A DNA stretch of 64,000 nt from Acidobacteriota bacterium (GTDB taxonomy: Bacteria; Acidobacteriota; Aminicenantia; Aminicenantales; Saccharicenantaceae). The stretch's first letter is position 1. The number at the start of each line of letters is the position of its first letter. The notes beneath the pieces are model-generated. The model saw only the letters and a list, made by a program, of their open reading frames with translations. It did not search any database and was not told the origin of the DNA. The translations under genes and the position numbers were made by a program. This document shows positions 9,050 through 31,542 of the stretch, piece after piece. The stretch is taken from contig JAKLEN010000005.1 in NCBI GenBank assembly GCA_022711665.1, positions 130,619-194,618 on the forward strand, in the 5' to 3' direction.

Positions 9050-11677
<2,628 letters not shown>

Positions 11678-11705
11678 CGCTTGGATCGCACCCGTCAAGG
11701 AGGGG

Positions 11706-12077
11706 ATGAAGATGATCAGAAAACCGAGGAGGGCGGGACCGCCCAGGAAGCTCCGGACGGAGCACACGGTCAAGGTCAGCGTCAAGGGCAGGAAGATCGA
11801 GTACGACCGTCATTGCGTCCATGTCCAGCGCGGCGACACGATCGTCTGGCACCTCGACAGGCCCTGGCCGTTCGCCGTCATCGTCAAGGCCGTCGAGTCG
11901 CCTCTCGACTGGACCGCCCGAGTGGCGCCGCGCGGCGCCCGGGCGCTCGCGGCCAGGGTGAGGGCGGACGCAGCGCCGGGATTCTATCCCTACGCGTTCT
12001 GCGTCAGCGCCGGCGAGGCGCTACTGGTCGATGACCCGGAGATCATCGTCCGGCCGCCGGCGGGGGGACGGGGCTAG
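11706..12077 (+). CDS. Hypothetical protein (123 aa)
   Basis: AAGGAGGGG RBS and codon usage consistent with neighbours. No recognisable domain. Confidence 0.4.
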   Translation: MKMIRKPRRAGPPRKLRTEHTVKVSVKGRKIEYDRHCVHVQRGDTIVWHLDRPWPFAVIVKAVESPLDWTARVAPRGARALAARVRADAAPGFYPYAFCVSAGEALLVDDPEIIVRPPAGGRG

Positions 12078-12112
12078 GGCGGGGCCGGCCCCGGGGAGAC
12101 GGCCGCTCCGGG

Positions 12113-12364
12113 CTAGAACTCGCGGTCGTCGCGTTTGCAGTAGTAGTTGTACGGGCTGATGTCCAGGCCGCCGAGGTAGATCTCGCCGCGGTCGGCCATG
12201 AGGAAGGCCTTGTCCGTGGGAAAGCCGTAGAGGATGGGGATGACCTCGTCCGTCTCGTGGCAGTAGGGACAGATGACGTCACGCTTCCGGCCGTTGCTCT
12301 TGGCCGGCCTGTGGCTGTGGACGTGACCGTGGCCGTGGGTGGTTCCGCAGGACGTGTTCATCAT
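12113..12364 (-). CDS. Small His-rich hypothetical protein (83 aa; HGHGHVHSH tract, CPYCH motif)
   Basis: GGAAGGTG RBS upstream of ATGATG. Possible metal-binding protein. No family assigned. Confidence 0.4.
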   Translation of the reverse strand: MMNTSCGTTHGHGHVHSHRPAKSNGRKRDVICPYCHETDEVIPILYGFPTDKAFLMADRGEIYLGGLDISPYNYYCKRDDREF

Positions 12365-14768: not shown

Positions 14769-15398
14769 CTAGTGTCCGCCGCTGACCTTGTAGCCCATCT
14801 CCCTCAGCTTGGCCGCCCATCTCTTCTCGGCGGCTTTCGATGCGGCCTGGTCGTAGTACTTGGTTTCGGGGGCCAGGTCCGGGCGCAGGCGCCGGCCGTA
14901 TTTCCGGGCGACGGGGGAGAAGAGCGGCCCGCGCCTGTTCCTCTTGCCCTTGCGGTGCTCCTCGAAGCGCTCTTCGGGGGTCTTTGACGTCTCGCCTACG
15001 TAAACGAACCCTTTTCCCTGGTCTTTGCAGCCCTTGGGGTCGAGCTCGATCACGTAGACCGTCCAGACCTTCGGGTCGCGGTTGACCGTGAATCCCTCCG
15101 ACTTGAGGCACTTGACGGCGGCCCGCTTTTCGCTGTCGGCTTCTTCCCGGAGCAGAAAAGGGCCCGATGTCAGGTCGTCGCGCAGCATGACCAGGTGGTC
15201 CCGAAGCCACTCCGGCCCTTTCCCCTTCAGCAGGGCCGCGAACCGATTCGACGGCTCCTGGGTGGTGATGGCCACATAGAGATTGGGCTTCCCGGGATCG
15301 CGGCGCGGCACGACATCGTCGAGCTCGACCACTAGGACATAATTGCGCGGCTCCCTTATGGACCGCCGCGGGCTTCGCCTATAGAAGCGCTTTCTCAA
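14769..15398 (-). CDS. Tandem GIY-YIG (YhbQ/UPF0213-like) nuclease-domain protein
   Basis: Two consecutive GIY-YIG-like modules (YVLVVEL...LYVAITT...GKG and VYVIEL...FVYVGET...EERFEEH...GKR). Confidence 0.55.
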   Translation of the reverse strand: MRKRFYRRSPRRSIREPRNYVLVVELDDVVPRRDPGKPNLYVAITTQEPSNRFAALLKGKGPEWLRDHLVMLRDDLTSGPFLLREEADSEKRAAVKCLKSEGFTVNRDPKVWTVYVIELDPKGCKDQGKGFVYVGETSKTPEERFEEHRKGKRNRRGPLFSPVARKYGRRLRPDLAPETKYYDQAASKAAEKRWAAKLREMGYKVSGGH

Positions 15399-15711
15399 GG
15401 CTCGTATGCCCCTGCCAGAAGAACTATCACCGGGCGGCGGGGAGTGTCAATGATGCGGGCGCGCGAACCGCAACCTGGGGACACATATCAACGTGCCGCC
15501 AAACCGTGCGCCCGGCCGTCCTCGGCCTGAAGGCGGAAGGGGTCACGGATTTCTTAGAATATTTTTCGGTCGCCGCGAATTTCGACCGCTCTAGCCTGTC
15601 TTTACCATATGAAGCCTGTAGTTTACTCCGGATCAGGTTGTCTGGGAGAGATGCAGAAAACCCAGGTCAACGCCTGTTTACCTGACTTGATGACAGCAGT
15701 TGTCTTATTTC

Positions 15712-15740
15712 TTGACATTTGTCTAACTTTGGGTTTAATT
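15712..15740 (+). promoter_or_regulatory. Candidate promoter (TTGACA-17-TTAATT) with GACA..TGTC palindromic half-sites upstream of the HTH-ImmA regulator gene
   Basis: AT-rich 377-nt intergenic region. Hexamers and two GACA/TGTC inverted motifs (around 15692-15706 and 15714-15723) read from the sequence. Confidence 0.35.
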
Positions 15741-15775
15741 TCCATCGCATCGAGTTTCATGGGGATTTTTAGGGA

Positions 15776-16834
15776 ATGGGGCAGTTTCTGCCGGCCCGTC
15801 TGAAGAAAGCCCGCGAAGACGCCGGGCTGACGCAGGAGAGCTTTGCCCGCTCGCTGGGTCTTTCCTCCGAGTTCATTTCCCTTCTCGAGGCCGGCAAGCG
15901 GGCCCCCTCGCTCGAGACGCTCTCTCGGATCTCCGCCGCTCTCCATAAGGACGCCGCCTTTTTCCTGGGCGATAAGGAGCCGGCCTTTAAAGTCCTGTTC
16001 CGGGCTCCGGCCGTCGAGATCAGCCAGATAGCCCGCCAGGAGCTGGAACGATTCAGACGCTATGTGGACGATTATATGCGTCTCGAGGAAGCGACCGGAC
16101 GCACCCTGGAGCTGGCGCCCCTCTATTCCGGCCGGCTCTCGCCTGAGCGGATGGCCGCCGAAGAAAGGCGCCGCCTGGGCCTCGGGGACGAGCCGGTCCG
16201 CGATATCTTCGCCCTGCTCGAACGCAACGGCCTGCGGATCCTGCGCGGCCCGTTGCCCCCGGCCGTTGCGATCTCCGGCGTTTTCGTCTTCCTCGAGGCC
16301 CGTAACGCCGCTTTCGCCCTTATCAACTCGGCCCAAACCCCGTGCCGCCAGGCCTTCACCGCGGTTCATGAATACTGCCATTACCTCAAGGACCGCAGCG
16401 AGCCGCCGATCATCGATACCCACCGGATCTTCGAGGATGCCGCCAGGCCGAAAGCCGCGCGGAAAGAGGCGCGCTTCGATAAGAAGGATCAGTTCGCCCA
16501 GGAGTTCGCCGCCCACTTCCTGATGCCTCCGGCCAAGGTCCGGGAGATCGTCGAACGGGATTTCGGAGCCGGCCGGCTGTCCTACGACGACGTCCTGCTC
16601 ATCAAGCGCTATTTCGGGGTCAGCGCCCAGGCCATGCTTCGGGCCCTGTGCAATTTGGGGCTGCTCACCGCCGGCCGGCATCAGGAATATGCCCGGCTCG
16701 ATCCGGTTCAGCACGAAAAGAGAGTGTTCGGCGGAACCGACGAGGACTATGGGCCGGGATCGGGGCTTGATTCGGCTGGGATCGTCGTTTCCGACCGGTA
16801 TCGCCTGATGGAACGGGAGGTCTCATCACAATAG
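15776..16834 (+). CDS. Fused XRE-family HTH / ImmA(IrrE)-family zinc metallopeptidase regulator (COG2856-like)
   Basis: N-terminal HTH_XRE (LKKAREDAGLTQESFARSLGLSSEFISLLEAGKRAPSLETLSRISAAL). C-terminal HEXXH (HEYCHY) within an ImmA/IrrE-like domain. Confidence 0.8.
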   Translation: MGQFLPARLKKAREDAGLTQESFARSLGLSSEFISLLEAGKRAPSLETLSRISAALHKDAAFFLGDKEPAFKVLFRAPAVEISQIARQELERFRRYVDDYMRLEEATGRTLELAPLYSGRLSPERMAAEERRRLGLGDEPVRDIFALLERNGLRILRGPLPPAVAISGVFVFLEARNAAFALINSAQTPCRQAFTAVHEYCHYLKDRSEPPIIDTHRIFEDAARPKAARKEARFDKKDQFAQEFAAHFLMPPAKVREIVERDFGAGRLSYDDVLLIKRYFGVSAQAMLRALCNLGLLTAGRHQEYARLDPVQHEKRVFGGTDEDYGPGSGLDSAGIVVSDRYRLMEREVSSQ

Positions 16835-16972
16835 TGAGCGATATGAAATTACTAAATGTGCAATGCAGGCCTCAGGCAGGGAGACTGACTTGATTTAGCC
16901 CCCATTAATAAGCAATGCTTTTGGAAAGATTGTAAGCAGCAGATCAAGATTCGATAATAATAGCCAATTGGA

Positions 16973-18502
16973 ATGGGGTTTTCTATGCCTAAGACAAAAG
17001 CCTATGGGCAAGTAGTTCAATCACAGAAATATGAAATTGCTGATCCCAGGCCAAGCGCTCTAATCGAATCGCTTAGGTCTGTAGGATATAAGCTTTCCAC
17101 AGCGATCGCCGATATCGTTGATAACAGCATTGCGGCCGATGCAAGAAACATTTGGATACGTTTTAAATGGGCGGGAGCGAAATCGCTCATTTCGATCATA
17201 GATGATGGACGGGGAATGACAGAAAGTGCCTTGGTAGAAGCGATGCGGCCTGGCTCAATTAGTCCGATCGTCGAGCGCAGTCAGACCGATTTAGGGCGTT
17301 TCGGGCTCGGCCTAAAAACAGCGTCCTTTTCTCAATGTAGACGCCTTACCGTTATTTCGCGTAGCAAGGGCTGTCGTGCTGTAACCCGCGTCTGGGACCT
17401 TGATTATGTTGTCCGTCATGATGAATGGCGCCTTTTAAGAAGTGGAGATGAGCTTGAGGAAGGCGTAGCCAGTTTCGCGAAGACTGAGACGGGAACTGCA
17501 GTCATTTGGACACACCTTGACCGAATAATAACGCAAGGTGAGAATGCTAATGACGCGTCTGCACATAATCGATTTAATGATTCCATTGACCAAGTGCGTC
17601 AGCACTTGGCGGTTATTTATCACAGGTTTATCGAAGCTGGAGAGGTCAGGATATTTATAAATAACAATCTTGTTAATGGGTGGAATCCTTATCTAGAAAA
17701 CCATAAAGCTACTTATAGAGCACCTGATGAGATTATTCCTTTCGGGAAATCAAAGATTTATTTTCGTGGTTACGTATTGCCTCACAAGGATATGCTAACA
17801 CATGAACAATACGAATCTGCGGCAGGTCCATTAGGCTGGACAGCACACCAAGGATTTTACGTCTACAGAAACAGGCGACTTCTTGTTCCCGGCGATTGGC
17901 TAGGATTAGGGAGTCCAAAGCCGTGGATAAAAGCAGAGCACTATAACTTGGCACGCATATGTCTAGATATTTCTAATGACGCTGATAATGAATGGCATCT
18001 TGATGTGAAGAAATCTATGGCTCGGCCACCTGCTCTGGTTAAAGAAAGACTAACTGAACTTGCCGAAAACATACGAAAGCGGGCACGATCCGTTTTTGCC
18101 CATAGGGGAAAATATGGAGCACGAATTTCGCCCATATCTGAATATGAAAGGCCTTGGGAAGCAAAAACACGTCAGGGATATCGCATATATAAAATAAACC
18201 GAGGTCATCCTGCCGTTAGCCAGGCAATTCAGGCTGCTGGGACGGCAGCTCCCGATATAGAATCGATGCTGAGGATTCTCGAAGAAACCGTGCCGGTACA
18301 GCAGATATGGCTGGACATCGCAGATCAGACTCAAGACGTTGCTCGTCCATTTATCGGTACCGATTATTCTGTTATACGTTCAGATCTCCGGAAAATCTAT
18401 ATTTTCTTAACAAAGTCCGGAATAGATAGGAATACGGCTCTCGCGCGACTGAAGGCTATGGAACCATACAACCACTATACTAATCTTATTAACGAGCTAT
18501 AA
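16973..18502 (+). CDS. GHKL-superfamily ATPase (HATPase_c_3 / MORC-like)
   Basis: Bergerat-fold motifs: N-box DNSIAADA, G1 box DDGRGM, G2 box GRFGLGLK. First gene of the low-GC operon. An alternative ATG at 16985 is possible. Confidence 0.8.
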   Translation: MGFSMPKTKAYGQVVQSQKYEIADPRPSALIESLRSVGYKLSTAIADIVDNSIAADARNIWIRFKWAGAKSLISIIDDGRGMTESALVEAMRPGSISPIVERSQTDLGRFGLGLKTASFSQCRRLTVISRSKGCRAVTRVWDLDYVVRHDEWRLLRSGDELEEGVASFAKTETGTAVIWTHLDRIITQGENANDASAHNRFNDSIDQVRQHLAVIYHRFIEAGEVRIFINNNLVNGWNPYLENHKATYRAPDEIIPFGKSKIYFRGYVLPHKDMLTHEQYESAAGPLGWTAHQGFYVYRNRRLLVPGDWLGLGSPKPWIKAEHYNLARICLDISNDADNEWHLDVKKSMARPPALVKERLTELAENIRKRARSVFAHRGKYGARISPISEYERPWEAKTRQGYRIYKINRGHPAVSQAIQAAGTAAPDIESMLRILEETVPVQQIWLDIADQTQDVARPFIGTDYSVIRSDLRKIYIFLTKSGIDRNTALARLKAMEPYNHYTNLINEL

Positions 18503-18516
18503 GAACGGAGACAGGA

Positions 18517-21333
18517 ATGGAAACCAATGCTGCCCTAGCCATATGCCAAATATTATTAGGGCAAAAGCGGGCCAATAAAGATGCCGCTATTTGCCGTGAA
18601 GACATATTAGCGGTTGTTGAACAATTCGCCGCTCTAGAACCCGCCAAAGGCATAGATAAAGAGGAATTGGTTAAAACGCTTGAGGAACGTTTCACCGTCT
18701 ATGTGCCGAATCATCTTACTCTCGGATCGGATGACAACCATATTGCTTGGTTGTCGGCAAAACGCAGCTCTATTAATTGGCAATATTGGGAACGTTATAA
18801 AAATTATCTTGAAGGGCTACTCCCACCCGCTGCTGTTGAGGGCGTGGGCAAAACCACGGAGGAAATATTACAGCGCCTTGAAGATCCTTATCGTACGGGT
18901 ATTTGGGACAGGCGCGGCTTAGTGATGGGGAATGTTCAATCAGGAAAGACCGCCAACTATTGCGGCCTCATATGCAAGGCGGCAGACGCCGGATACAAGG
19001 TCATTATCGTCCTTTCTGGAATTCATAATAGCCTGCGTAGTCAGACACAAATTCGATTAGACGAAGGATTTCTTGGATTCATGAGCGAACCGCTGGCTGA
19101 CGGGACGCGGGGTTTTGTCCCCGCAGGGGTGGGCATTAACGGCCCTAGCATCAATCCCAATACTGCTACAAATCGGACGGAGCGTGGTGATTTTAATCGT
19201 ACGATAGCTAGCCAATTCGGAATTCATCCAGGCGGCCTGCCTCTCCTCTTTGTTACGAAGAAGAACGTGAGTGTGCTTAGGAACCTCAACAATTGGATAT
19301 CTTCTTGTATGAATGCCAAAGATCCATCGACGACTAGGCGCTTTGTCAGAGATGTCCCTCTTCTGGTGATTGACGACGAAGCCGATCTCGCGTCGGTAGA
19401 TACGCATTTTCAAGAGCTTGATGAAAACGGCAACCCTGACCCTGATCATAATCCGGCCGAAACCAATAAGCAGATTAGGAAACTCCTACGAGCATTCGAA
19501 AAGGTTGCCTATGTCGCCTATACGGCTACACCGTACGCGAATATTTATATTTATGATAGAGGATTTACGCCCCTATTAGGCGACGACCTTTTTCCTAGAA
19601 GCTTCGTTGTCAGCATTCCTCCCCCGAGTAACTATATGGGTCCTGCGCGTGTATTTGGGATTTCGGAAGACGAAGATGCAGGCCTAGAGGAGGTAACGCC
19701 ATTACCGGTAATACGAAACGTAAAAGATCATGCAGTCAGCGCTGATATGAATGAAACCCGGGGATGGATGCCCCCTCGACTAATCGCCGGAACTGACCAT
19801 ATGCCCCGTTATCTGGGAGAACGACGTATACCTCCGACATTACGAGAAGCAATTCTCTCCTTTATTTTAGCATCGATAGTACGCAAATCTCGTGGCTGTC
19901 TGCCCGCACATAATTCTATGCTCATCCATGTCGTCCGCTATACAAAGGTTCAAAAGCTTGTTTCAGATCAAGTAGAAGAAACTCTCCGCGAGATAACACA
20001 GCGCCTGAGGTATGGGGACGGCAGCCGCCGTCCGACGATAACCGATGAGTTCCGGAATCTTTATCTTAAAGATTTCAAGAAAACGACAGAAAGCTGTAAT
20101 AAAATCCTAAACGACAGGCTCGAGCTTCCAGTCTGGACAGCAATCACGCCGGCCTTGCTATCTACAGCGACGAGCATAAAAGTAAAGATTATTAACGGTA
20201 GCGCTGGGGATGTTCTAGATTATGAAGAGAATAAGAAGACTGGGATGAACGTGATCGCTATTGGAGGAGACAAACTCTCGCGCGGGCTAACTCTTGAGGG
20301 TCTTTCCATCAGCTATTTTTTACGGGCTTCTCGTATGTACGATACGTTAATGCAGATGGGGCGGTGGTTCGGCTATCGTGGGCAATATATTGACATTTGC
20401 CGACTCTATACTACTTCAGAGCTAATAAAGTGGTTTGCTCATATCACTGCAGCAGCAGAGGAGCTTCGGCATGAGTTTGAACGGATGGTATCTGTGGGCG
20501 GTACGCCGAAAGATTATGGACTGAAAATCCGTGCACACCCTGCCCTATTAGTAACATCGGCTGTTAAGATGCGTCACGGGACTTCAATGAGGATATCTTT
20601 TTCTGGCGAGATTAGTGAAACGATAATATTCCAGCGGGAACCTTGGTGGGTCCTAAGTAATTATGATGCGACCGTAGGTCTGCTTTCTAGCCTGCCAATG
20701 GAAAAATATTTAGGGTTTCGTAATTCCGGTTATACATGGCAAGAAATTCCCATAGAGACGGTACTTCAATATTTGAATGAGTACAAGACTCACAATGATG
20801 TCCGTCGGGCGGACACCGCGTTGCTGGCAAAATATATCCGGGCACAAAACGAAAATGGTGAATTAGCTAAATGGACCATTCATTTGTGCTCTTCAGGTAA
20901 AGCTGACGCAATACGTGAAGCAATAGGCAATCAGAAGGTTGGCCTTATTATGCGCGCGCCATTCCCTCAGCCTTATGACCCGCAAGCGGATCGATATACA
21001 ATCAGACGGCTGGTAAGCCCGACTGATGAACTTGTAGATTTAAGCAAAGAACAGCAGCAAGAGGCAATTCGGTTGACTCAAGAACGATGGAAAGCTGAGC
21101 ATAGAATGGGCGAGCCGGAAAGAGCAGGCGGAAGGGAGATACGTAAGGTCCGTGATAAGAACAACGGATTATTGCTTCTATATCCCATCGGGCCGCCTAG
21201 CTTTTATCCTGCCGGAACGAAGCCAATTATAGGGATGGCCATTAGTTTTCCAAAGAGCGACACCGCAAAAGAAGTGATTTATACAGTGAACAATGTGTTT
21301 ACGCAGCAGGGCGGAGATGATGAAAGCTTCTGA
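18517..21333 (+). CDS. Z1-domain protein (large P-loop NTPase, 938 aa)
   Basis: Walker A GNVQSGKTANY and a Walker B-like LLVIDDEAD. The size and position next to AIPR, GHKL and Dcm genes match the Z1 family. GGAG RBS upstream. Confidence 0.75.
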   Translation: METNAALAICQILLGQKRANKDAAICREDILAVVEQFAALEPAKGIDKEELVKTLEERFTVYVPNHLTLGSDDNHIAWLSAKRSSINWQYWERYKNYLEGLLPPAAVEGVGKTTEEILQRLEDPYRTGIWDRRGLVMGNVQSGKTANYCGLICKAADAGYKVIIVLSGIHNSLRSQTQIRLDEGFLGFMSEPLADGTRGFVPAGVGINGPSINPNTATNRTERGDFNRTIASQFGIHPGGLPLLFVTKKNVSVLRNLNNWISSCMNAKDPSTTRRFVRDVPLLVIDDEADLASVDTHFQELDENGNPDPDHNPAETNKQIRKLLRAFEKVAYVAYTATPYANIYIYDRGFTPLLGDDLFPRSFVVSIPPPSNYMGPARVFGISEDEDAGLEEVTPLPVIRNVKDHAVSADMNETRGWMPPRLIAGTDHMPRYLGERRIPPTLREAILSFILASIVRKSRGCLPAHNSMLIHVVRYTKVQKLVSDQVEETLREITQRLRYGDGSRRPTITDEFRNLYLKDFKKTTESCNKILNDRLELPVWTAITPALLSTATSIKVKIINGSAGDVLDYEENKKTGMNVIAIGGDKLSRGLTLEGLSISYFLRASRMYDTLMQMGRWFGYRGQYIDICRLYTTSELIKWFAHITAAAEELRHEFERMVSVGGTPKDYGLKIRAHPALLVTSAVKMRHGTSMRISFSGEISETIIFQREPWWVLSNYDATVGLLSSLPMEKYLGFRNSGYTWQEIPIETVLQYLNEYKTHNDVRRADTALLAKYIRAQNENGELAKWTIHLCSSGKADAIREAIGNQKVGLIMRAPFPQPYDPQADRYTIRRLVSPTDELVDLSKEQQQEAIRLTQERWKAEHRMGEPERAGGREIRKVRDKNNGLLLLYPIGPPSFYPAGTKPIIGMAISFPKSDTAKEVIYTVNNVFTQQGGDDESF

Positions 21334-22348
21334 GGAACTAATTCAGATATGGAACCTTGTTATGGAAGACAAGGGGGATCTACCAGGCTATTATTACCGC
21401 AGGATGCAGAAAGAGCTTCCTTTCCCCGTTTATGCTGGGATTATTAATCCAGGACGTTTGCGCTGTATTTCTATATTGGTGGATACAGAAGCTCTTGGCG
21501 TTGCTGCTCAGCGAGACGAAACAAATGGTTATTCCGTAAGAATTGAGTTGGCAGAAGCTGGCACACATAAGTCATTCATTCACCTCGCCTCAAGAATGGA
21601 GGCAGGGAATGATGAATTATTCGTATTCCTATGCGCTGATTTGCTTGGGTTATGCCGTTCGGATATGGAGGGCCACAAGGCTGTCGCCGCAATCTTTCAC
21701 CGACTATCTTATTGGCGTCGATTTTTTCAGCGACATGGCGGAGGATTGAGCAGAGAAGAAATCATTGGTCTTTATGGAGAACTCCGATTTCTTGAATTAT
21801 TGCTTGATTATGGAGTTCCGTCAGAATTAGCAGTCATGGCATGGAAGGGACCCCTTGGAACAAATCAGGATTTTCTCTTTGGTTCTAAAGCAGTGGAAGT
21901 GAAGTGCACGACTGCCAATGAAGCAGATATTGTAAAAATTACTAGTGAGAGGCAGCTGGATTCTACTGGGCTAACAACACTATTCCTTTTTCATCAAGCC
22001 TTTGACTTCCGGGAGAATTCTGGGAGAACATTAAAAAAGCTTATCGGTGATATTAAGAAGCGTCTAGAAGACACATCGCCGCACGCAATAATCCTATTCG
22101 AGGAATTACTTATTTCGGCCGGATATTCGGGCGAGTATAAACCTGTTTTCGACAACTATGGGTTCACGGAAAGGAAGCAATCGGCGTTCGAAGTCCAGCC
22201 AAGTTTCCCACGTATCGATGAGACAGCACTACCTGGTGGAGTTTCCCGTGTATCCTACCAATTAGATTTGGCTGTCTGCCATAAGTATAGGATTCATATT
22301 GAAGCGATCTTTCGTGCTTTAATGACTGGAGAGCAGAGTGGACAATGA
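21317..22348 (+). CDS. PD-(D/E)XK-superfamily nuclease (predicted)
   Basis: D...EVK core (QDFLFGSKAVEVKCT). Start ATGATG overlaps the Z1 stop by ~17 nt (track ORF begins at 21293). Translational coupling is suggested. Confidence 0.6.
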   Translation: MMKASEELIQIWNLVMEDKGDLPGYYYRRMQKELPFPVYAGIINPGRLRCISILVDTEALGVAAQRDETNGYSVRIELAEAGTHKSFIHLASRMEAGNDELFVFLCADLLGLCRSDMEGHKAVAAIFHRLSYWRRFFQRHGGGLSREEIIGLYGELRFLELLLDYGVPSELAVMAWKGPLGTNQDFLFGSKAVEVKCTTANEADIVKITSERQLDSTGLTTLFLFHQAFDFRENSGRTLKKLIGDIKKRLEDTSPHAIILFEELLISAGYSGEYKPVFDNYGFTERKQSAFEVQPSFPRIDETALPGGVSRVSYQLDLAVCHKYRIHIEAIFRALMTGEQSGQ

Positions 22349-24419
22349 ACGGGTAATAGTTCAGTTCCATCAGCAAATCGAGAGTGAAATCACAGAATCC
22401 ACACGGCAGGAGGGCGGCTTTGGCTCGGGTGAGTTCCGTGAGAACGTGCTGACGAGTATTTATGCGGAAGAGCTCTCGGCTGCGGGCGTGCTTGAATCGC
22501 CGGAAGTATGTCATTTGGAGGGCGGTAAAGGCAATGCATCTATTAAGGTGAATGGGTATGGGGTTCCGGAAGAGGATTCGCGGATAGACCTATTTATTAC
22601 GCTTCATTATGGCCCTTCGGATGAGATTGTCACTATAAATGCAGCGGAAGTCGAAACGGCGTTTAAAAAATTAGAACGTTTCTTTGGAAAGAGCCTAGAC
22701 GGCCTGTATAAAGAGCTGGATCCGGCTGGCGATCAATACTTGATGGCGGAGCATATCCAAGGGCTAAAGGCCAAAATGGACCGAGTCTGTTTCTATTTAT
22801 TTACTAATGCCAGACTGGCACAGAGAAAGGAAAAAGAACATAAGTCCGATATCTTTGGGCTTGAAGCTGTTTATGAAGTATGGGACCTGGAGAGATTTCG
22901 CCGCCTGAGAGAAAGTGGAACCAGCTATGAGGCATTGGTGGTCAACCTCGAAGATCAGAAGCTGGGAGGTCTTCCGTGCGTTCTCTTAGGAACAAATGGA
23001 GGCAATTCCCAAACTTGCGTGACTTTGTTCCCTGGGGAACTGCTTTGTGAACTCTATGATGAGTACGGGCCACGCCTGCTTGAACTGAATGTAAGGTCAT
23101 ACCTACAGGCGCGAGGCAAAGTAAACAAAGGAATAATGGAGACCCTCCAGAAAAGTCCACAAGATTTTTTAGCTTATAATAACGGGATAACGGTCGTTGC
23201 CGAAGAGATCATATTCGGAAAACTTTCTAATGGTTCACTGGGAATATTAGAGCTTCGTGGAATGCAAATCGTAAATGGAGGCCAGACAACCGCATCGATA
23301 CATAGGGCAGCAAAGGACTTCGGGGCTGACCTTTCGTGCGTAAGTGTGCAGGGGAAAGTGACGGTCGTTGACGGGGCCCGTTTTCAAGATATAGTGCCCT
23401 TAATATCACGATTTTCAAATACCCAAAATCGCGTAACAGAAGCTGACCTGAGCGCTAACCATCCTTTCCATATCGGGATGGAAAGAGTTTCTAGGCGGGA
23501 ATGGACGCCCGACCAACGCAGTATGTGGTTCTATGAACGCGCACGCGGAAGCTATCAGACGGCGAAGATCCGTGAAGGCAACACTCCTTCGAAAAGGAAG
23601 GCTTTTGAAGATAGGTACCCCAGTAACCAGCGGTTTTCGAAAGAAGATTTGGCCAGATTCGAAAACACTTGGCTTGGTTTGCCCCATATTGTTAGTCGTG
23701 GAAGTCAAAAGAACTTTGTCCACTTCATGCATGAGCTGGGGCAATACGACGAAGGTTGGGAGCCAGATATGGATCAGTATCGGCAGTATGTTGCGAAGGG
23801 GTTACTTTTCAAAGAAGCTCAAAGGGTAATTCGGGCAGATAGGAGGATAACAGCATATCAGATTAATGTAGCGGCCTATACCGTTGCCCTTCTAGCCGAA
23901 AAAACAGCCCGCCGACTAGACCTAAAACGTATATGGCGAATGCAGAAGGTTTCTGAAGCGACGTCAGAACTGCTGGCGGCTTGGGTGCCAATAGTATTTA
24001 AACACCTTCCTGATTATGCAGCAAAGGTGGGGAAACACATTGGTGAGTCCTTCAAGGCGTCCGCATGCTGGGATAATATCCGAGGGTTGGATCTGGTTGT
24101 GCCGAAAACTATTGATAAAGAACTCGTGGATGTCCCTGCAGGGGAAGACGAATTATCCGCAGCCAGGCGGCGTGATAGCAGGAAGCTGTCTTCAAATGAC
24201 AAGAATAACATAGCACGGTGCATGGAACTTGGGCAGAAAGAATGGCTGGCGATAGCTCTTTGGGGCCAGAAAACTAACATTCTTGCGGATTGGCAAAGGG
24301 GAATTGCCCGTACTCTTTCCGGATATGCTGCCGAAAAATGGGTAAAAAGGCCAAGCTCCAAACAGGCCTATCATGGTGTTCACATGATCGAAAGTGCACG
24401 AACGGCGGGTATCTTATAA
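22338..24419 (+). CDS. AIPR-family protein (abortive infection phage resistance family)
   Basis: N-terminal region with the GEFRENVLTSIYAEELSAAGVLE..RIDLFITLHY pattern typical of AIPR proteins. GTG start overlaps the previous stop by 11 nt. Size (693 aa) fits the family. Confidence 0.7.
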   Translation: MDNERVIVQFHQQIESEITESTRQEGGFGSGEFRENVLTSIYAEELSAAGVLESPEVCHLEGGKGNASIKVNGYGVPEEDSRIDLFITLHYGPSDEIVTINAAEVETAFKKLERFFGKSLDGLYKELDPAGDQYLMAEHIQGLKAKMDRVCFYLFTNARLAQRKEKEHKSDIFGLEAVYEVWDLERFRRLRESGTSYEALVVNLEDQKLGGLPCVLLGTNGGNSQTCVTLFPGELLCELYDEYGPRLLELNVRSYLQARGKVNKGIMETLQKSPQDFLAYNNGITVVAEEIIFGKLSNGSLGILELRGMQIVNGGQTTASIHRAAKDFGADLSCVSVQGKVTVVDGARFQDIVPLISRFSNTQNRVTEADLSANHPFHIGMERVSRREWTPDQRSMWFYERARGSYQTAKIREGNTPSKRKAFEDRYPSNQRFSKEDLARFENTWLGLPHIVSRGSQKNFVHFMHELGQYDEGWEPDMDQYRQYVAKGLLFKEAQRVIRADRRITAYQINVAAYTVALLAEKTARRLDLKRIWRMQKVSEATSELLAAWVPIVFKHLPDYAAKVGKHIGESFKASACWDNIRGLDLVVPKTIDKELVDVPAGEDELSAARRRDSRKLSSNDKNNIARCMELGQKEWLAIALWGQKTNILADWQRGIARTLSGYAAEKWVKRPSSKQAYHGVHMIESARTAGIL

Positions 24420-24422
24420 GCT

Positions 24423-25979
24423 ATGACGATTACAAAGTACCCCATTCCCGTTATTGATCTATTTGCCGGTCCAGGGGGACTTAGTGAGGGATTCTCTTCC
24501 TATGAGGAAGGATCTACTTTTTGTGTACGGCTTTCAATTGAAAAGGACAGATTCGCTCATCGGACTCTTGAGTTGCGGGCATTCTTTCGTAGTTTCGACG
24601 AAGATCCTCCCTCTGAATATTATAATTACCTTAAACATCAAATTAGTCGCGAAGAGCTATTCAAGATGTTTCCGACGCAAGCCAATAAGGCCAGGAACCA
24701 AGCTTGGCAGGCTGAACTAGGGAACAGGAAATATCCCAAAGCTCAGGTAGATAAGAAGATCAGGACTGCTCTGGGAAGACATGGTGACCGCTGGGTTCTT
24801 ATCGGAGGTCCTCCCTGCCAAGCTTATTCACTCATCGGCCGCTCTCGGATAAAGGGAAAGAGTATTAAGGATTATGAATCCGATAATCGCCATTTTTTAT
24901 ATCGCCAATATTTGAAGATATTGGCTGAACATAAGCCTCCTGTATTTGTAATGGAAAACGTAAAGGGATTATTATCCACGGAAATTAACGACCAGAGGAT
25001 TGTCGAACATATCCTCCGCGATTTACGGAACCCTAGTCAAGCAGTACGGAATAGTTCAAAGCATAATGGTGCCGAATATGTACTTCATTGTTTAGCGCCG
25101 ACAAAGAAGCAATACACAGAACTGACTCCTGAGGACTTTATCGTAAAGTCTGAGGCATATGGAATACCGCAAACGCGTCACAGGATCATTTTACTGGGAA
25201 TCCGAGCCGACGTACGCGTAAAACCAAAACACTTGATACCACAAGAAAGCACATTGTCGGTCGAACAAGCGATTGGAGATGTTCCGCCCGTAAGGAGCGG
25301 CATATCAAGAATGATTGATTCTTATGAACGATGGCTAGCGGTGGTTCGTAGCATTACTCGCTCTGAATGGCTAAAGGAGGGGGCTGTTACGAAAGAGATT
25401 CGTGGCGCTATAAAAGCCGTAGCAGAAAGCCAAAATCTGGCTTTTTCTCGGGGGGGGGAGTTCGTGAAAACTGTAGCTGCCCCCCAAATAATGGCGGAAT
25501 GGTTTAGGGATACCAGACTGCGCGGCGTATGTAACCATAGCACTCGCAGACATATGGAGAGTGATTTGCATCGGTATTTATTCGCTTCAGCATATGCGCA
25601 AGTTAATGGACATTCCCCACGACTGATTGATTTTCCGAAGGGATTGTTGCCAGATCATGCCAATGTCGGAGATGCGATCCGCGACCGGAAGTTCGGGGAT
25701 CGTTTTCATGTCCAAGTATCAAACCGTCCTGCATCCACGGTCACGGCCCATATATGCAAAGACGGTCACTATTTTATTCATTATGATTCAAAACAATGTC
25801 GTAGTCTTACGGTTCGTGAAGTAGCACGTCTGCAGACATTCCCAGATAATTATTTCTTTGAAGGGCCGAGGACTGAACAATATAGACAGGTCGGAAATGC
25901 GGTACCGCCGTTATTAGCTATTCAAATTGCCGATATTGTTGCGGGGATTTTTTATCAGGCTGGCAACCAAAAGGCATAA
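24423..25979 (+). CDS. DNA (cytosine-5)-methyltransferase, Dcm-type
   Basis: Motif I DLFAGPGG, motif IV GGPPCQAYS, motif VI ENVKGL, motif X VGNAVPP. Starts 3 nt after the AIPR stop. Confidence 0.95.
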   Translation: MTITKYPIPVIDLFAGPGGLSEGFSSYEEGSTFCVRLSIEKDRFAHRTLELRAFFRSFDEDPPSEYYNYLKHQISREELFKMFPTQANKARNQAWQAELGNRKYPKAQVDKKIRTALGRHGDRWVLIGGPPCQAYSLIGRSRIKGKSIKDYESDNRHFLYRQYLKILAEHKPPVFVMENVKGLLSTEINDQRIVEHILRDLRNPSQAVRNSSKHNGAEYVLHCLAPTKKQYTELTPEDFIVKSEAYGIPQTRHRIILLGIRADVRVKPKHLIPQESTLSVEQAIGDVPPVRSGISRMIDSYERWLAVVRSITRSEWLKEGAVTKEIRGAIKAVAESQNLAFSRGGEFVKTVAAPQIMAEWFRDTRLRGVCNHSTRRHMESDLHRYLFASAYAQVNGHSPRLIDFPKGLLPDHANVGDAIRDRKFGDRFHVQVSNRPASTVTAHICKDGHYFIHYDSKQCRSLTVREVARLQTFPDNYFFEGPRTEQYRQVGNAVPPLLAIQIADIVAGIFYQAGNQKA

Positions 25980-26066: not shown

Positions 26067-26513
26067 TTAGCCGGGACACCTATCGGCTTCCTTTTTAATA
26101 TTAGGTTTTCGCCGGACTAACTGAAGAAGCCGTATTTTCCATTCGGGATTTTCCACCTCGCATTCCCATATTGTGAAATAAGTCCATCCCAATACTTGTA
26201 CCTTCTGGGCAATCTCAATATCCCGCCTTTGATTCTCAACGAATTTCTTTTTCCAAAAATCAGTTCTTGACTTTGGCATGTATGCATACTTACATGATTT
26301 ATGCCGATGCCAGTAACATCCATGAACGAATATTGCAATCTTGTATTTTGGAAGTAAGATATCGGGGGATCCCGGCAAGATACCGGGAGTCAAAGAAAAA
26401 CGAAATCCCATGTGATGTAGCTGCGAACGAGTTCGGATTTCGGGCATAGTATTTCGTGACCTAATCCTTGACATATTCCAACTGCGCTTTGCCGGGGGAA
26501 TTCGGTCAGTCAT
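26067..26513 (-). CDS. vsr: Very-short-patch-repair endonuclease
   Basis: FVHGCYWHRH and TxPExRxxL motifs. 148 aa. Convergent with the methyltransferase gene. Confidence 0.95.
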   Translation of the reverse strand: MTDRIPPAKRSWNMSRIRSRNTMPEIRTRSQLHHMGFRFSLTPGILPGSPDILLPKYKIAIFVHGCYWHRHKSCKYAYMPKSRTDFWKKKFVENQRRDIEIAQKVQVLGWTYFTIWECEVENPEWKIRLLQLVRRKPNIKKEADRCPG

Positions 26514-26965
26514 TCATAAGCCACCCGTTTTTTAGATTAACAGGATAGCTTATATAGAACAAGAAGCTATGAGACAATGAAATTCCGTCCGTGATGGAGA
26601 TAAAAAGCCTCCGCATGGAACATTGGCCAACTTCCAGACCAACGGTGAATTCCCCATGACGACTGCCAATTGTTCAGGGTCTGGGCATATATGAATAATT
26701 TTATTCGTAAGCGCGAAAACATACTGCTTTGCGGTGTCGTTCCCTTATGGGAACGGGCGTATAGGGGGGCTGCCTGAGGGAATGGGCCTCGTGGGCTTGG
26801 CCCTAGCCGTAAGGCGGGACGAAAGATCATGACGAAATGAGCGCTACGGAGAGCTACGGCATTTAACCCAGGGGCGGGTCCTCCCGCGACTGGCCGGAGT
26901 CCGAGCAGGAGGTCTATTGGCGCCTGGATGGGTCGCTGCCGGAGGACTGGACTGTCTGGCACTCG

Positions 26966-27409: not shown

Positions 27410-28357
27410 GTGCCGATGGCATTTGATCGTGTTCATGACGCCCGCATCAGGGCCGCGGCCTTCGAGTGGCTGACGGATCAGGTTCTGCGGCATGGAGACG
27501 TGCTGCCCCGCAGCCTCCTGGTCCAGGGATTCTATTTCGGGGACTCGAGGGTTCCGCTGGTCGGCCCGCAGGGGATCTTCAAGCCTCGCATCCTCGAGCT
27601 GCCGCTGTCGATTACGACGGCGCCGGAAGGCCCCTATAACGATGCCTTCGGCCCGGATAAATTGCTGCGCTACCGTTACCGGGGGACCGACCCGGACCAT
27701 AGAGACAATCGGGGGCTGCGGGAGGCCATGGCGAACCGGTTGCCGCTGGCTTATTTCCATGGGATCGCGCCCGGACGATATATGGCGGCTTGGCCTGTCT
27801 TCATAGTCGGCGACCATCCTGATCCATTCTCGCCGTCGTTCTCGGTAGCTGTCGATGACAAGGGGCATTTGGGTGTCGTCGCCGAGGACCGAAATGAGCG
27901 TGGCGCCGTGGGCGAGGAAGGCGATACCGCCCGGCGGCAATACATAACGTCCACCGTTCGGGTCCGGCTCCACCAAAGAGCCTTCAGGGAGCGCGTGCTC
28001 GAGGCCTATCGCCGGCAATGCGCGTTCTGCCGGCTCAGGCATGAGGAGCTGCTCGACGCCGCCCACATCATTCCGGACGCGAGCCCGGAAGGCGAGCCCG
28101 TGGTCCAGAACGGGCTGGCGCTGTGCAATCTCCATCATGCGGCGTTCGACAAGTTCTTTATCGGGGTGCGGCCTGACTACGTCATCGAGATCCGCCCGGA
28201 TATCCTGAGAGAGGGGGACGGTCCAACGTTGAGGCACGCGATCCAGGGGCTGAACGGGACGAGCATCCTGGTGCCCGAGCGGCTGAGTCTAAGGCCGGAT
28301 CAAGCGCTCCTTTCGAAGCGTTATGAGCGGTATCGCGAGGCCGCCCGGGAATACTAG
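27410..28357 (+). CDS. HNH endonuclease, COG3440/HNH_2-like (candidate modification-dependent type IV restriction enzyme) with uncharacterised N-terminal domain
   Basis: C-terminal CAFCRL...LDAAHIIP...NGLALCNLHHAAFD HNH signature. ~200-aa N-terminal domain (GIFKP...YRYRGTDPDHRDNRGL). The likely ATG is at 27416, preceded by GGAAGGAGA. Confidence 0.75.
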   Translation: MPMAFDRVHDARIRAAAFEWLTDQVLRHGDVLPRSLLVQGFYFGDSRVPLVGPQGIFKPRILELPLSITTAPEGPYNDAFGPDKLLRYRYRGTDPDHRDNRGLREAMANRLPLAYFHGIAPGRYMAAWPVFIVGDHPDPFSPSFSVAVDDKGHLGVVAEDRNERGAVGEEGDTARRQYITSTVRVRLHQRAFRERVLEAYRRQCAFCRLRHEELLDAAHIIPDASPEGEPVVQNGLALCNLHHAAFDKFFIGVRPDYVIEIRPDILREGDGPTLRHAIQGLNGTSILVPERLSLRPDQALLSKRYERYREAAREY

Positions 28358-28442: not shown

Positions 28443-28943
28443 CTAGGCCCGAAGCAGGGCCGAGTAGATGGCGTGGTCGGCGGCCGAGAAGCAGCAGAAT
28501 GTCACTTCGATCCCGCAAGCCGGGTGCCCGTCGAGGAATTCCCGTACGGCCTTGACCGCGACCGCGGCCGCGAGCTCTATGGGATAGCCGTAGACGCCGG
28601 TGCTGATCGAGGGGAAGGCGATCGACCGTACGCCGTTCTCAAGAGCAACTTCGAGCGACTTGAGATAGCAGCCGCGGAGGAGTGCAGGCTCGTTCGCGCG
28701 GCCGCCCCGCCAGACGGGCCCGACCGTGTGGATGACGAACCTGGCCGGGAGCCTGTAGCCCTTCGTGATCTTGGCCTCGCCGGTCGCGCATCCTCCGAGG
28801 GTGCGGCATTCGGCGAGTAGCTCGCGTCCCGCGGCGCGGTGGATGGCCCCGTCGACGCCGCCTCCGCCGAGGAGCGAGGCATTCGCGGCGTTGACGATCG
28901 CGTCGACCTCGAGGGTCGTGATGTCGGCGACGACGGCTTTCAT
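28443..28943 (-). CDS. Macro-domain protein (YmdB-like O-acetyl-ADP-ribose deacetylase / ADP-ribose hydrolase)
   Basis: [23 protein letters not shown] and [15 protein letters not shown] motifs. 166 aa. Confidence 0.85.
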
Positions 28944-29089
28944 TTATGCCTCTCTTCGGGGCCTTCCTTACTCTAGGGGCGGAACGCGGGGCTGTCAAAT
29001 CGTTCTGCAGCCGGGCCGTCCCAGGCGACGCGTTGAGACGATCGAATCCGAGACGGGCGCGGGCCGCGAAAAGGCCGGGGAAATCGCCT

Positions 29090-29118
29090 TTGACAGCAAG
29101 ACGCTATAACGCTATGAT
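29090..29118 (+). promoter_or_regulatory. Sigma70-type promoter of the TA operon (TTGACA-17-TATGAT) with ACGCTAT direct repeats overlapping the spacer/-10
   Basis: Hexamers and the repeated ACGCTAT(A/G) read from the sequence. GGGAGGG RBS before the ATG at 29136. Confidence 0.5.
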
Positions 29119-29135
29119 GTTTAAGGGAGGGCAGA

Positions 29136-29616: not shown

Positions 29617-29629
29617 GCTGGATCGGCCT

Positions 29630-31357
29630 TCATCCGATCTCGAGGATGCGGTCGAGGCGGAAGGTGCGGCACTCGCCGCGGCTGTGGCAGAAGGCGCGCA
29701 GGCCCTCGAAGGTCCGGCCGTGGTACTCCATCATCTCCACTGATTCGGGCCGGATGCGGCGGCGTGACTTCTTGTCGTCGGGCTTGAGGTAGACGATCTC
29801 GAGCTCGCGGCCGTCGCGGATGGCCTCGAGGAGGAGAGCGCGCTTGTCGGCCGGGGGCAGGGCCTGCTCGGCCTTCTTGTACTGGAAGCGGGTCAGGAAG
29901 CGGACGATGCGCCAGTCCATCAGGATGTGAGCGCGGCGGATGGGCGTCCGCAGGACCAGGCCCTCGAACGAGGTGCAGCGGCTCAGGGCGACGTAGACCT
30001 GGCCGTGGGCGAAGGCGCCGCGGCCGATGTCGACGACCACGCGCTCGAAGGTCTTGCCCTGGCTCTTGTGGATGGTCACGGCCCAGGCCAGGCGCAGCGG
30101 GTACTGGGTGAAGGCGCCGACGGCCTCGGAGTCGATGCGGTCCTCCTCGGCGTCATACTGGAAGCGGAAGAGCTCCCAGGTGTTGGGCCCGACGTCGACC
30201 TCGGCGCCGCCGGCGAGCTCGACCGTGACGATGTCGTCGGCGTCGATGTCCTCCGACTTGCGGATGCGGGCGACGCGGCCGATCGTGCCGTTGACCCAGC
30301 GGCCCTTGCGGTCGTTGGTCAGGAGCATGACCTGGGCGCCGGGCTTGAGCTCGAGGGCCTCCTCGGTCGGCAGGGAGCGGCGGTCGAACTCGCCGTCGAC
30401 GAGGCCCTCGTAGCGGCGGGCGTGGCCGCTCAGGGCGGCCAGCTTCTCGCGGTTGCGGGCGGCAGCCAGGTCGTTGGTGCTGGTCAGGGTGATGTAGAAC
30501 CGGTCGTCGGGCGGGACGAAGGCGGAATCGAGGCGGCTGTTGAGAAGGGCGATCTGGGCGTCGTCGATCGAGCGGTTGCGGATGGCGTTGAGCAGGCCGA
30601 TGAAAGCGGCGTCGTTCTGGCGGTAGACTTTCTCCAGCTCGACGAAGTCCATGTCGAAGCCGGGCTCGGCGAAGACGCGGGCCGAGAAAAAGTAGGGCGA
30701 CTCGTAGCGGGGGGCGGAAGCGCCGGACGTCAGGACGGCGGCGGGGGAGGGGCCGGCGTTCCCGGCGCCCCAGCGGCGGAGCGAGACCGGGTCGGGAGCG
30801 AAGAGGCCGCGCTCCTGGCCGGTGACCACGGGCGGCAGCTGGTAGAGGTCGCCGATGAAGATCATCTGCAGGCCGCCGAAGCGCTCCTTGGGGCGCGGGC
30901 CGTTGAGGCGCAGGAACTTCTCGACGCAGTCCATCAGGTCGGCCCGGACCATCGAGACCTCGTCGATGACGATGGCGTCGAGGTTGCGGTACAGGGCGAC
31001 CCGGTCGGCGGCGGCACCGCGGCCCTTGGAAAGCTTGCGCACCGACTCGGGCGTGACGTCGGGCTTGAAGCCGAAGAACGAGTGGATGGTCTGGCCGCGG
31101 ACGTTGAGGGCGGCGACACCGGTCGGGGCCAGGACGGCGATCTTCTTGAGCGTCTGGTTGCGCCAGAGCTCCAGGAGGGTCGATTTCCCGGTGCCGGCCT
31201 TGCCGGTGATGAAGACGTGGCGCGAGGTGCCCTCCATGATATCGAGTGCCCGCCGGAAACCGGGATTGATCTCGATGGCCGGCGCCTTGCCCGGCGTCCG
31301 GCCCGGAGACCGGTCCGGCTCGTCCGGTTTCGGTTTGCGAGCGCTTTTCCTGGTCAT
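29630..31357 (-). CDS. Pif1/RecD-like SF1 helicase fused to C-terminal WYL domain
   Basis: Walker A GKAGTGKST, Walker B IVIDEVSMV, the Pif1 signature LYQLPPVV, and VYVALSRCTSFEGL. The C-terminus ends ...GECRTFRLDRILEIG (WYL-type). Internal ATG (MTRKSARK) chosen as start. Confidence 0.8.
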   Translation of the reverse strand: MTRKSARKPKPDEPDRSPGRTPGKAPAIEINPGFRRALDIMEGTSRHVFITGKAGTGKSTLLELWRNQTLKKIAVLAPTGVAALNVRGQTIHSFFGFKPDVTPESVRKLSKGRGAAADRVALYRNLDAIVIDEVSMVRADLMDCVEKFLRLNGPRPKERFGGLQMIFIGDLYQLPPVVTGQERGLFAPDPVSLRRWGAGNAGPSPAAVLTSGASAPRYESPYFFSARVFAEPGFDMDFVELEKVYRQNDAAFIGLLNAIRNRSIDDAQIALLNSRLDSAFVPPDDRFYITLTSTNDLAAARNREKLAALSGHARRYEGLVDGEFDRRSLPTEEALELKPGAQVMLLTNDRKGRWVNGTIGRVARIRKSEDIDADDIVTVELAGGAEVDVGPNTWELFRFQYDAEEDRIDSEAVGAFTQYPLRLAWAVTIHKSQGKTFERVVVDIGRGAFAHGQVYVALSRCTSFEGLVLRTPIRRAHILMDWRIVRFLTRFQYKKAEQALPPADKRALLLEAIRDGRELEIVYLKPDDKKSRRRIRPESVEMMEYHGRTFEGLRAFCHSRGECRTFRLDRILEIG

Positions 31358-31542
31358 CCCGGGGATTTTCTCCCAAATCAGACGCCGACGCAATCGGTCC
31401 GTTCGTCGGCGCATCGCTTCCGCCGTTCTAGAGGACGATCCGGAGGAGGCGCTTTTCTCACGCCGGCGCCGGGCTTGCGCCAAGTCCGTCCGGTTATGTA
31501 TACTTCCCGTCAATCATCTTCCTTGACGGCACGGGGGCGGAC

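Follow-up and report, generated by a model that had tools for sequence, protein, structure and literature searches.

The window analysed here is a stretch of 64,000 nucleotides (nt) of contig JAKLEN010000005.1, from an uncultured Candidatus Aminicenantes bacterium, and its gene of interest lies at 15776..16834; in a single polypeptide of 352 amino acids (aa), this gene joins an XRE-type helix-turn-helix (HTH) domain to a metallopeptidase domain of the M78 (ImmA/IrrE) family. The reading preferred here, at about even confidence, is that the protein is a long-resident, autoregulated repressor-protease that heads a hotspot for defence genes, and not the dedicated switch of the Dcm-linked cassette that follows it. 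Its residency and the later insertion of the cassette are supported by four observations: the base composition breaks at its stop codon, relatives of the cassette occur without the regulator, relatives of the regulator occur without the cassette, and the regulator keeps its position relative to a PIF1-WYL helicase. It would repress its own promoter, be released by proteolysis and be co-transcribed with the cargo behind it. The preliminary description of this DNA had already suggested a resident regulator with the cassette inserted behind it, which is borne out, and Pfam confirms the fused 352-aa protein that it reported. The features of the gene (E, expectation value) are:

15776..16834, forward strand: fused XRE-HTH/M78 metallopeptidase regulator, an intact open reading frame (ORF) of 352 aa
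15800..15958, forward strand: XRE-type HTH domain, residues 9-61 (Pfam HTH_3, E 4.5e-13)
15998..16003, forward strand: F75-R76, candidate scissile bond within FxxLFR just past the HTH (conservation and CapH analogy)
16319..16645, forward strand: M78 (ImmA/IrrE) peptidase domain, residues 182-290 (Pfam PF06114 Peptidase_M78, E 1.1e-11)
16367-16381, forward strand: HEYCH, residues H198-H202, the HExxH motif of the M78 domain
16487-16489, forward strand: D238, third zinc-ligand position (alignment of homologues)

Residency of the regulator and insertion of the cassette

Behind the regulator follow:

16835..16972 (138 nt), forward strand: regulator-cassette gap and left junction of the low-GC insert, marked by the fall in G+C content (GC) at the regulator stop
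16930-16958, forward strand: promoter-like site TTGTAA-17-GATAAT, the sole promoter-like match in the gap
16973..25979, forward strand: Dcm-linked Mza-like cassette of GHKL (MzaB-like), Z1 (MzaC-like), DUF4420 PD-(D/E)XK (MzaD-like), AIPR (MzaE-like) and Dcm genes (Pfam, PADLOC, NCBIfam)
16973-18502, forward strand: GHKL ATPase gene (HATPase_c_3; Pfam), the first of the cassette, co-directional with the regulator
26067..26513, reverse strand: Vsr very-short-patch repair endonuclease, companion of Dcm, convergent, at the right end of the insert (Pfam, NCBIfam; GC 0.43)

GC drops from 0.64 to 0.46 at the regulator stop codon and lies at 0.42-0.50 over 16.9-26.5 kb, against 0.64 in the regulator and 0.67-0.77 in core genes. 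The regulator is co-directional with the GHKL gene and ends 138 nt upstream of it, as had been described; the gap (16835-16972) holds no terminator-like hairpin, and its RNA fold is no better than that of shuffled sequences (z = +1.6). The cassette genes match the PADLOC profiles of MzaB (E 2e-129), MzaC (1e-231), MzaD (5e-30) and MzaE (7e-105). NCBIfam returns the same families, but with scores of 166-878 bits that fall below the equivalog cut-offs of 420-1500 bits for all four genes, so that the cassette is a relative of Mza and not canonical Mza; it fits a putative Dcm-linked 'type II' system (PMC9523054). In the same source mzaA is a sigma factor, and credit for mzaABCDE goes to Gao et al. 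2020 (PMC9523054).

The regulator and the cassette do not belong together; they differ in origin and in distribution. Contigs of the identical strain show the same arrangement, and at the regulator loci of other species in the genome collection cassette genes are absent throughout (0 of 72). Conversely, the nearest cassette relatives (L092, L094 and L095 in our numbering of related loci; GHKL 60-69% identical) keep the five-gene core and have unrelated genes directly upstream, the contig of L092 beginning too late to reveal whether a regulator lies upstream; three annotated plasmid examples carry a sigma-70 gene, Dcm itself or other genes in the regulator's slot, sigma-70 in the case of the canonical Mza example L097. 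These relatives came from protein searches and contig look-ups; scanning metagenomes for near relatives of the GHKL gene had yielded nothing useful. Directly upstream of the L092 cassette stands a UvrD-like helicase with 65% identity to a gene in the cargo of the regulator-headed island L086, which implies that one pool of modules circulates through such islands. In L092 (1-13829), two extra genes stand between Dcm and Vsr, one AspBHI-N-like, the other AspBHI-N-like with an Mrr catalytic domain.

The flanks of the regulator and the cassette contain:

9050-12364, left flank: Ser/Thr-kinase-TPR gene with two small genes (PkTPR-g123-g83), which recur in L004 and L083
26966-27409, forward strand: NERD-like ORF, an older island gene (GC 0.64-0.65, as the regulator)
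27410-28357, forward strand: HNH_2 endonuclease, an older island gene (GC 0.64-0.65, as the regulator)
29630..31513, reverse strand: PIF1-like helicase with a WYL domain, the right-hand anchor (Pfam; conserved synteny)

In 14 other species, a homologue of the PIF1-WYL helicase (62-65% identity) is found 0.5-3.5 kb past the regulator; in the window the distance is 12.8 kb. Judged by this gene order, the window regulator is a positional orthologue at a conserved Aminicenantes locus, and the DNA between regulator and helicase is inserted cargo. A NERD homologue (62% identity) occurs downstream of the regulator in L006, where the intergenic region is masked by Ns and does not define the junction, and HNH_2 occurs downstream of it in L004, L009, L030, L034, L037 and L089; the NERD-like and HNH_2 genes of the window are older island genes that the insert has pushed away from the regulator. 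The cassette is of foreign origin, an insert of 9.7 kb which would have landed exactly at the regulator stop codon and parted the regulator from NERD and HNH_2.

Several further observations concern these flanks. The NERD-like frame runs on upstream of 26966 (…RDWPESEQEVYWRLDGSLPEDWTVWHS-M…), with an ATG at 26837 and an in-frame TAA at 26864-26866, and past that TAA there is no ATG, GTG or TTG before 26966; either decay into a pseudogene or truncation at the 5' end may explain this. HNH_2 is the most recurrent gene downstream of the regulator family, has a weak likeness to modification-dependent nucleases of the phosphorothioate/ScoMcrA type, and also adjoins another copy of the Mza-like/Dcm cassette in L095; a modification-dependent nuclease beside a newly acquired Dcm raises a question of compatibility. 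At 28443-31513 the island goes on with a Macro-domain gene (reverse strand), a pair of ribbon-helix-helix antitoxin and ParE toxin, and the PIF1-WYL helicase (reverse strand), the Macro gene being a near neighbour also of regulator homologues of ~38% identity. No tRNA gene was found in the window, and no integrase among the scanned island genes, the rest of the window not having been scanned for one. In some genomes, regulator paralogues stand 5-18 kb apart (L040; L034 and L065, on OY970261.1).

Upstream of the regulator, a divergent gene of 209 aa with a GIY-YIG domain (14769-15398, reverse strand) has a promoter-like site of its own, TTGACA-16-GATAGT at 15423-15450; its homologues (37-39% identity) occur upstream of the regulator at varying distance in L004, L007 and L009.

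Promoter, candidate operator and architecture of the regulator

The regulator is preceded by:

15712..15740, forward strand: regulator promoter, with -35 TTGACA at 15712-15717, a 17-nt spacer and -10 TTAATT at 15735-15740 (aligned relatives, matrix)
15724..15736, no strand assigned: candidate operator, an inverted repeat TAAC-N5-GTTA, in the window TAAC TTTGG GTTT (conserved in relatives)

The 377 nt upstream of the gene (15399-15775) are AT-rich, as had been noted, with a GC of ~0.55-0.56 against 0.63-0.72 around them. The TTGACA-17-TTAATT promoter reported there is likewise found, and it aligns column for column with TTGACA-17-TATAGT-type promoters of 12 relatives. In 13 close homologues, the 110 nt upstream hold TTGACA, a 17-nt spacer and a TATAGT-like element, and within the spacer stands either another TTGAC or TAAC-N5-GTTA; the candidate operator sits between -35 and -10 and overlaps the latter. 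The GACA..TGTC half-sites first proposed as operator are present, at 15714-15723, but are not conserved in the relatives, where the conserved repeat is TAAC-N5-GTTA.

A weight matrix built from the relatives only, with the window excluded, gives 32.9 bits at 15710-15743; the runner-up site in the 64-kb window reaches 9.2 bits, and the maximum of 20 shuffles is 17.5. By this matrix no copy of the operator occurs in the regulator-cassette gap, where the best scores are negative, or elsewhere in the 64-kb window. Across 1.43 Mb of related loci (±10 kb, about 20 kb per genome), it matches 42-92 nt (mostly 57-69) upstream of the regulator start in ~55 loci, with few exceptions elsewhere, and among these loci are homologues of 37-56% identity from outside the set on which it was built. 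The palindrome is kept in homologues as distant as 38% identity (for example ATAACTCAGGGTTAT and TAACCGCGCGTTA), and perfect palindromes are frequent among those of 37-56% identity (ATAAC TCAGG GTTAT; TAAC CGCGC GTTA). Where two regulator paralogues occur in one locus (L040, 5051-11062), each has its own promoter and operator. Such conservation has the signature of an autoregulated repressor, which would bind an operator overlapping its own -10 element.

Between -10 and the start codon, close relatives share a block ...AGCGGGGCT...GGGAGA, whose counterpart in the window (15741-15775) is CATGGGGAT...AGGGA. A conserved hairpin in the 5' untranslated region that would hide the Shine-Dalgarno sequence was considered and rejected, the consensus fold reaching only -2.0 kcal/mol with weak covariation; 15200-17200 has no Rfam match. 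An invariant ATGGG, closely preceded by a purine-rich stretch, backs the start codon (13 loci). At the other end, conservation of the regulator ceases at ...VSDRYRLMEKEVS, near residue 350, and the tails beyond vary in length and sequence, which places the cargo junction at the extreme 3' end of the gene, in the window as in the relatives.

The protein itself was compared with 120 homologues of 52-75% identity. Conservation of the metallopeptidase motif among homologues had been set beforehand as a test of the earlier proposal, and H198, E199 and H202 are invariant (120 of 120). The expected third zinc ligand, six residues ahead of the conserved F-A-A-x-F-L-M-P, is position 238, which is Glu in 112 of the 120 and Asp in the window protein; only this protein and six of its nearest relatives (P0003, P0006, P0008-P0011) have Asp or Asn there, which may mean a shifted ligand or relaxed catalysis. 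All the Asp/Asn-238 proteins have Glu at 243 and an enlarged 221-234 loop. Just past the HTH, the motif FxxLFR is strongly conserved (F71 in 118, L74 in 120, F75 in 106 and R76 in 118 of 120); a segment LELAPLY is conserved as well. CapH is cleaved at F82|R83, shortly past its HTH (10.1101/2022.04.27.489752), and by this analogy F75|R76 is proposed as the scissile bond.

Fifteen PADLOC profiles of RmrA match the regulator, the best with E 1.2e-32 (residues 4-303 against positions 2-274 of 363 of the profile); matches to capP (E 7.4e-15) and capH (E 6.3e-10) are weaker, as is one in NCBIfam to the spr1629 repressor/antitoxin family. No sigma factor was matched in Pfam, PADLOC or NCBIfam.

The AlphaFold2 model of the regulator (mean predicted local distance difference test 86.1, predicted template modelling score 0.78) places the HTH at 1-65, a hinge of lower confidence at 61-80 and then a long helix, followed by an extended yet confident segment at 108-122 in which A114-P115 are invariant, an alpha/beta peptidase domain at ~140-300 and a helical tail; the loop 221-234 is of low confidence and variable among homologues. 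Among solved structures, Foldseek ranks CapP 7t5t first (E 1.6e-6), with 189 columns aligned to this target of 278 residues; the peptidase domain also matches IrrE 3dti, and the HTH superposes on C.BclI, DdrO, the N-terminal domain of CapH and ImmR over 56-66 columns with a root-mean-square deviation (rmsd) of 1.0-2.5 Å (1.1 Å for CapH 7t5u). By sequence, the nearest solved protein is a 393-aa HTH-M78 fusion, PDB 9vzy, for which no describing publication was found.

These resemblances bear on the proposal of a dedicated CapH/CapP-like switch, in which the fused protein would silence the Dcm-linked effectors until DNA damage or single-stranded DNA (ssDNA) triggers its autocleavage. It draws on the PADLOC matches to capP and capH, on CapP 7t5t as the best solved match, on the CapH-CapP fusions known beside CBASS and DISARM together with the full-length DrmD in the relative L009, and on the regulator lying adjacent to and co-directional with a cassette from which no terminator divides it. 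In CapP and IrrE, however, ssDNA is held in a groove that separates the peptidase domain from the GAF domain (10.64898/2026.05.16.725639), and neither the AlphaFold2 model nor Foldseek gives the regulator a GAF domain: past ~residue 300 only helices are modelled, the remaining 52 residues leaving no beta-rich C-terminal domain. The sensing of damage or ssDNA is thus not transferable from CapP or IrrE to the regulator. Nor does any Cys occur in residues 203-237, the equivalent of the cysteine-switch loop of CapP. No operator precedes the cassette, which has a promoter-like site of its own; cassette and regulator differ in origin and are apart everywhere else; canonical capHP is divergent from its operon; and silencing Dcm along with the effectors would presumably be hazardous, the chromosome being unmethylated and thus unprotected at induction, a consideration that speaks against tight repression. 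What stands of the CapH/CapP-like assignment is the pair of HTH and M78 domains and the position of close relatives at the head of defence-type cargo; the best profile is that of RmrA, a GAF domain is missing and the gene is not divergent. The claim that the protein keeps the Dcm-linked effectors silent until DNA damage finds no support in the form proposed, and we regard the dedicated switch as improbable.

Cargo of the hotspot and weighing of the readings

In homologues of ~50% identity, the gene order is a hexapeptide-repeat transferase, the regulator, a protein of ~145 aa and a convergent PIF1-WYL helicase. The ~145-aa protein carries a transmembrane helix at its N terminus and matches no Pfam family, and in 17 loci it lies 0-154 nt (mostly 10-30) past the regulator; no remnants of its gene or of the hexapeptide-transferase gene occur in the window or in close relatives. 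Homologues of 63-76% identity all head variable, co-directional cargo, including:

L003, L086-88: HSP70-TPR, UvrD-like, PbeA-like helicase, SbcD/SbcC-like and DUF499 genes
L089: Fic (SoFic-like), HNH_2, HsdM, HsdS, SIR2 and a DUF87 ATPase
L009: Fic, a GHKL protein, HNH_2 and full-length DrmD (E 7.5e-203)
L083: SNF2 helicase, then a DUF1156 gene
L084: DUF3024
L004: Schlafen/AlbA_2, HNH_2 and a gene reading as an N6 adenine methylase (not domain-scanned)
L006: NERD

The gene set of HSP70-like ATPase with TPR (820-888 aa), UvrD-like helicase, SbcD-like and SbcC/SMC-like proteins, with or without a PbeA-like helicase and DUF499, recurs uncharacterised behind the regulator in three independent loci (L003:5923-15223, L005:12196-16148, L086:3256-11140); its HSP70-like and Metallophos proteins and two more go unmatched in PADLOC, and it is a candidate for an unnamed defence system.

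In the window and in nearly all cargo-bearing relatives, regulator and cargo are co-directional. The next gene overlaps or abuts the regulator stop in L003, L005, L030, L032, L034, L037 and L089, which argues for an operon; Fic follows the regulator directly in L005, L009 and L089 and overlaps its stop in L005 and L089; and stop/start overlaps with variable, co-directional defence cargo are listed for L003, L005, L009, L034, L037, L083, L086 and L089. This orientation and these overlaps point to co-transcription rather than mere proximity, and so count against the alternative of coincidental adjacency, in which the regulator would govern a response to stress or DNA damage across the lineage, as a fused counterpart of DdrO/IrrE with its targets elsewhere. 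In its favour are the presence of the family at a syntenic locus beside PIF1-WYL in dozens of Aminicenantes species, with a basal arrangement that lacks defence genes, and the restriction of the operator, within ±10 kb, to the regulator's own promoter; against it is also that the search of about 20 kb per genome found no other copies of the operator. We consider coincidence rather unlikely.

The tightly linked small partners bring up another alternative, that the regulator is an antitoxin of the RosmerTA type (RmrA) whose partner was displaced or lost at the insertion, leaving an orphan without a role in the cassette. It would account for the close coupling of these partners in the relatives. 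RmrA is the best PADLOC match, with the weak NCBIfam match to spr1629 beside it; the 145-aa transmembrane protein of 17 loci, or Fic in L005, L009 and L089, could be such a partner; and the pairing of RmrA antitoxins is promiscuous, their varied toxins including some that depolarise membranes (PMC10440598). The window, however, has neither a small toxin-like gene beside the regulator nor a remnant of the 145-aa partner; several sets of cargo form large systems of many genes and not toxins; and the 145-aa protein, which belongs to no Pfam family, is only a putative toxin. This alternative we hold to be unlikely, much as coincidence is.

The preferred reading of a resident repressor-protease can be put as follows. 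The regulator, presumably as a dimer, would bind the TAAC-N5-GTTA palindrome in its own promoter and shut it; some signal would make the M78 domain cut the protein at FxxLF|R, between the HTH and the remainder; and, by analogy with CapH, DdrO and ImmR, cleavage would free the HTH and the promoter would open. The DNA 3' of the regulator, up to PIF1-WYL, is the hotspot in which defence genes gather, co-oriented and in many relatives translationally coupled. The cassette of the window keeps its own promoter-like element, so that the regulator would add at most an inducible read-through component to its expression; such a boost from the regulator promoter is plausible.

Four points weigh against this reading. 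Asp or Asn replaces the Glu of the family at the third ligand in the nearest subclade, where, judged by the alignment, peptidase activity is not assured; the right half-site of the window operator is GTTT, one mismatch from GTTA; the 138-nt gap with its separate promoter-like site would allow the cassette to be transcribed wholly independently; and several genomes hold paralogues (L034/L065, L040), so that the orthology of the window copy rests on shared flanks only.

A bolder idea, which we think unlikely to be correct, is that the regulator and its promoter form a fixed, lineage-wide 'expression platform', with the bases past its stop serving as a capture site for defence cassettes that arrive in one orientation and come under one protease-gated, stress-inducible promoter. 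If this were true, the captured cargo would span Fic, HNH, type I restriction-modification (R-M) genes, SIR2, parts of DISARM, the HSP70/UvrD/SbcCD-like set and the Mza-like/Dcm cassette; the locus would be a defence-island analogue of the Pc promoter of integrons; and a GAF-less M78 protein would sense a signal other than one held in the ssDNA groove of CapP and IrrE. Proteins that fuse an HTH to M78 and lie next to defence genes have been described before (RmrA, CapH-CapP fusions), and the gene itself is therefore ordinary. Its interest is moderate and lies in the missing GAF domain, the co-directional position at the head of an operon and the long residence, with an operator that is well defined, at a hotspot found across the lineage. 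It provides a whole family from an uncultured phylum with a testable operator and promoter (TAAC-N5-GTTA inside TTGACA-17-TAnnnT), and its lack of a GAF domain raises the question of which signal such proteins sense. It also cautions that a regulator next to a system need not be the regulator of that system, being in this case the resident anchor and not an arrival with the cassette.

Comparison with known systems

The closest match by profile is RmrA, the antitoxin of RosmerTA (Millman et al. 2022, bioRxiv 10.1101/2022.05.11.491447; Ernits et al. 2023, PMC10440598). Like the regulator, it combines an N-terminal HTH and an ImmA-type Zn-peptidase in one polypeptide, and like the regulator family it has highly variable neighbouring partners in defence islands. 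The regulator family differs in that its place on the chromosome is conserved throughout a phylum-level lineage, and the window differs in offering no adjacent toxin gene, the neighbours being the divergent GIY-YIG gene upstream and, 138 nt downstream, a foreign five-gene R-M-like cassette; the two-gene operon of RosmerTA is absent here, while relatives do carry tightly linked 145-aa transmembrane or Fic partners.

CapH/CapP (Lau et al. 2022; Calloji et al. 2026, 10.64898/2026.05.16.725639) likewise joins an XRE repressor to an M78 peptidase near defence operons. The regulator shares with it the HTH moiety and the HExxH motif with a downstream ligand position (here Asp, not Glu); CapP is its closest peptidase fold, and the F-R dipeptide shortly past its HTH recalls F82|R83 of CapH. 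CapH-CapP fusions are known from CBASS, in 15 systems, and from a set of DISARM systems (10.1101/2022.04.27.489752), and a relative of the regulator lies upstream of DrmD. CapP differs in having the GAF domain with its ssDNA groove and a cysteine-switch loop (a switch that is not universal in CapP), besides the third ligand; and canonical capH and capP lie divergent upstream of their operon (10.1101/2022.04.27.489752), whereas the regulator is co-directional with its cargo.

MzaA, a protein of the sigma-70 family upstream of mzaBCDE, occupies the same slot as the regulator, immediately upstream of and co-directional with GHKL-Z1-PD-(D/E)XK-AIPR genes. As a sigma factor, however, it is unrelated to a repressor-protease, and the cassette of the window is a Dcm-linked relative. 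The controller (C) proteins of R-M systems, such as C.BclI and C.AhdI, share the operator in their own promoter and the co-directional position upstream of R-M-like genes, and C.BclI is 39% identical to the regulator HTH over 56 residues (Foldseek). C proteins consist of the HTH only (~80 aa), are part of their R-M system and have C-boxes before the nuclease gene, and neither of the last two points holds for the regulator.

ImmR/ImmA (ICEBs1, phage phi105) and DdrO/IrrE (Deinococcus) work on the same principle as the regulator, an M78 protease inactivating a repressor, and ImmA, like the regulator, lacks the GAF domain that IrrE has. Both pairs consist of two separate proteins, and ImmR/ImmA control the excision of mobile elements, whereas the regulator is flanked by syntenic chromosomal genes.

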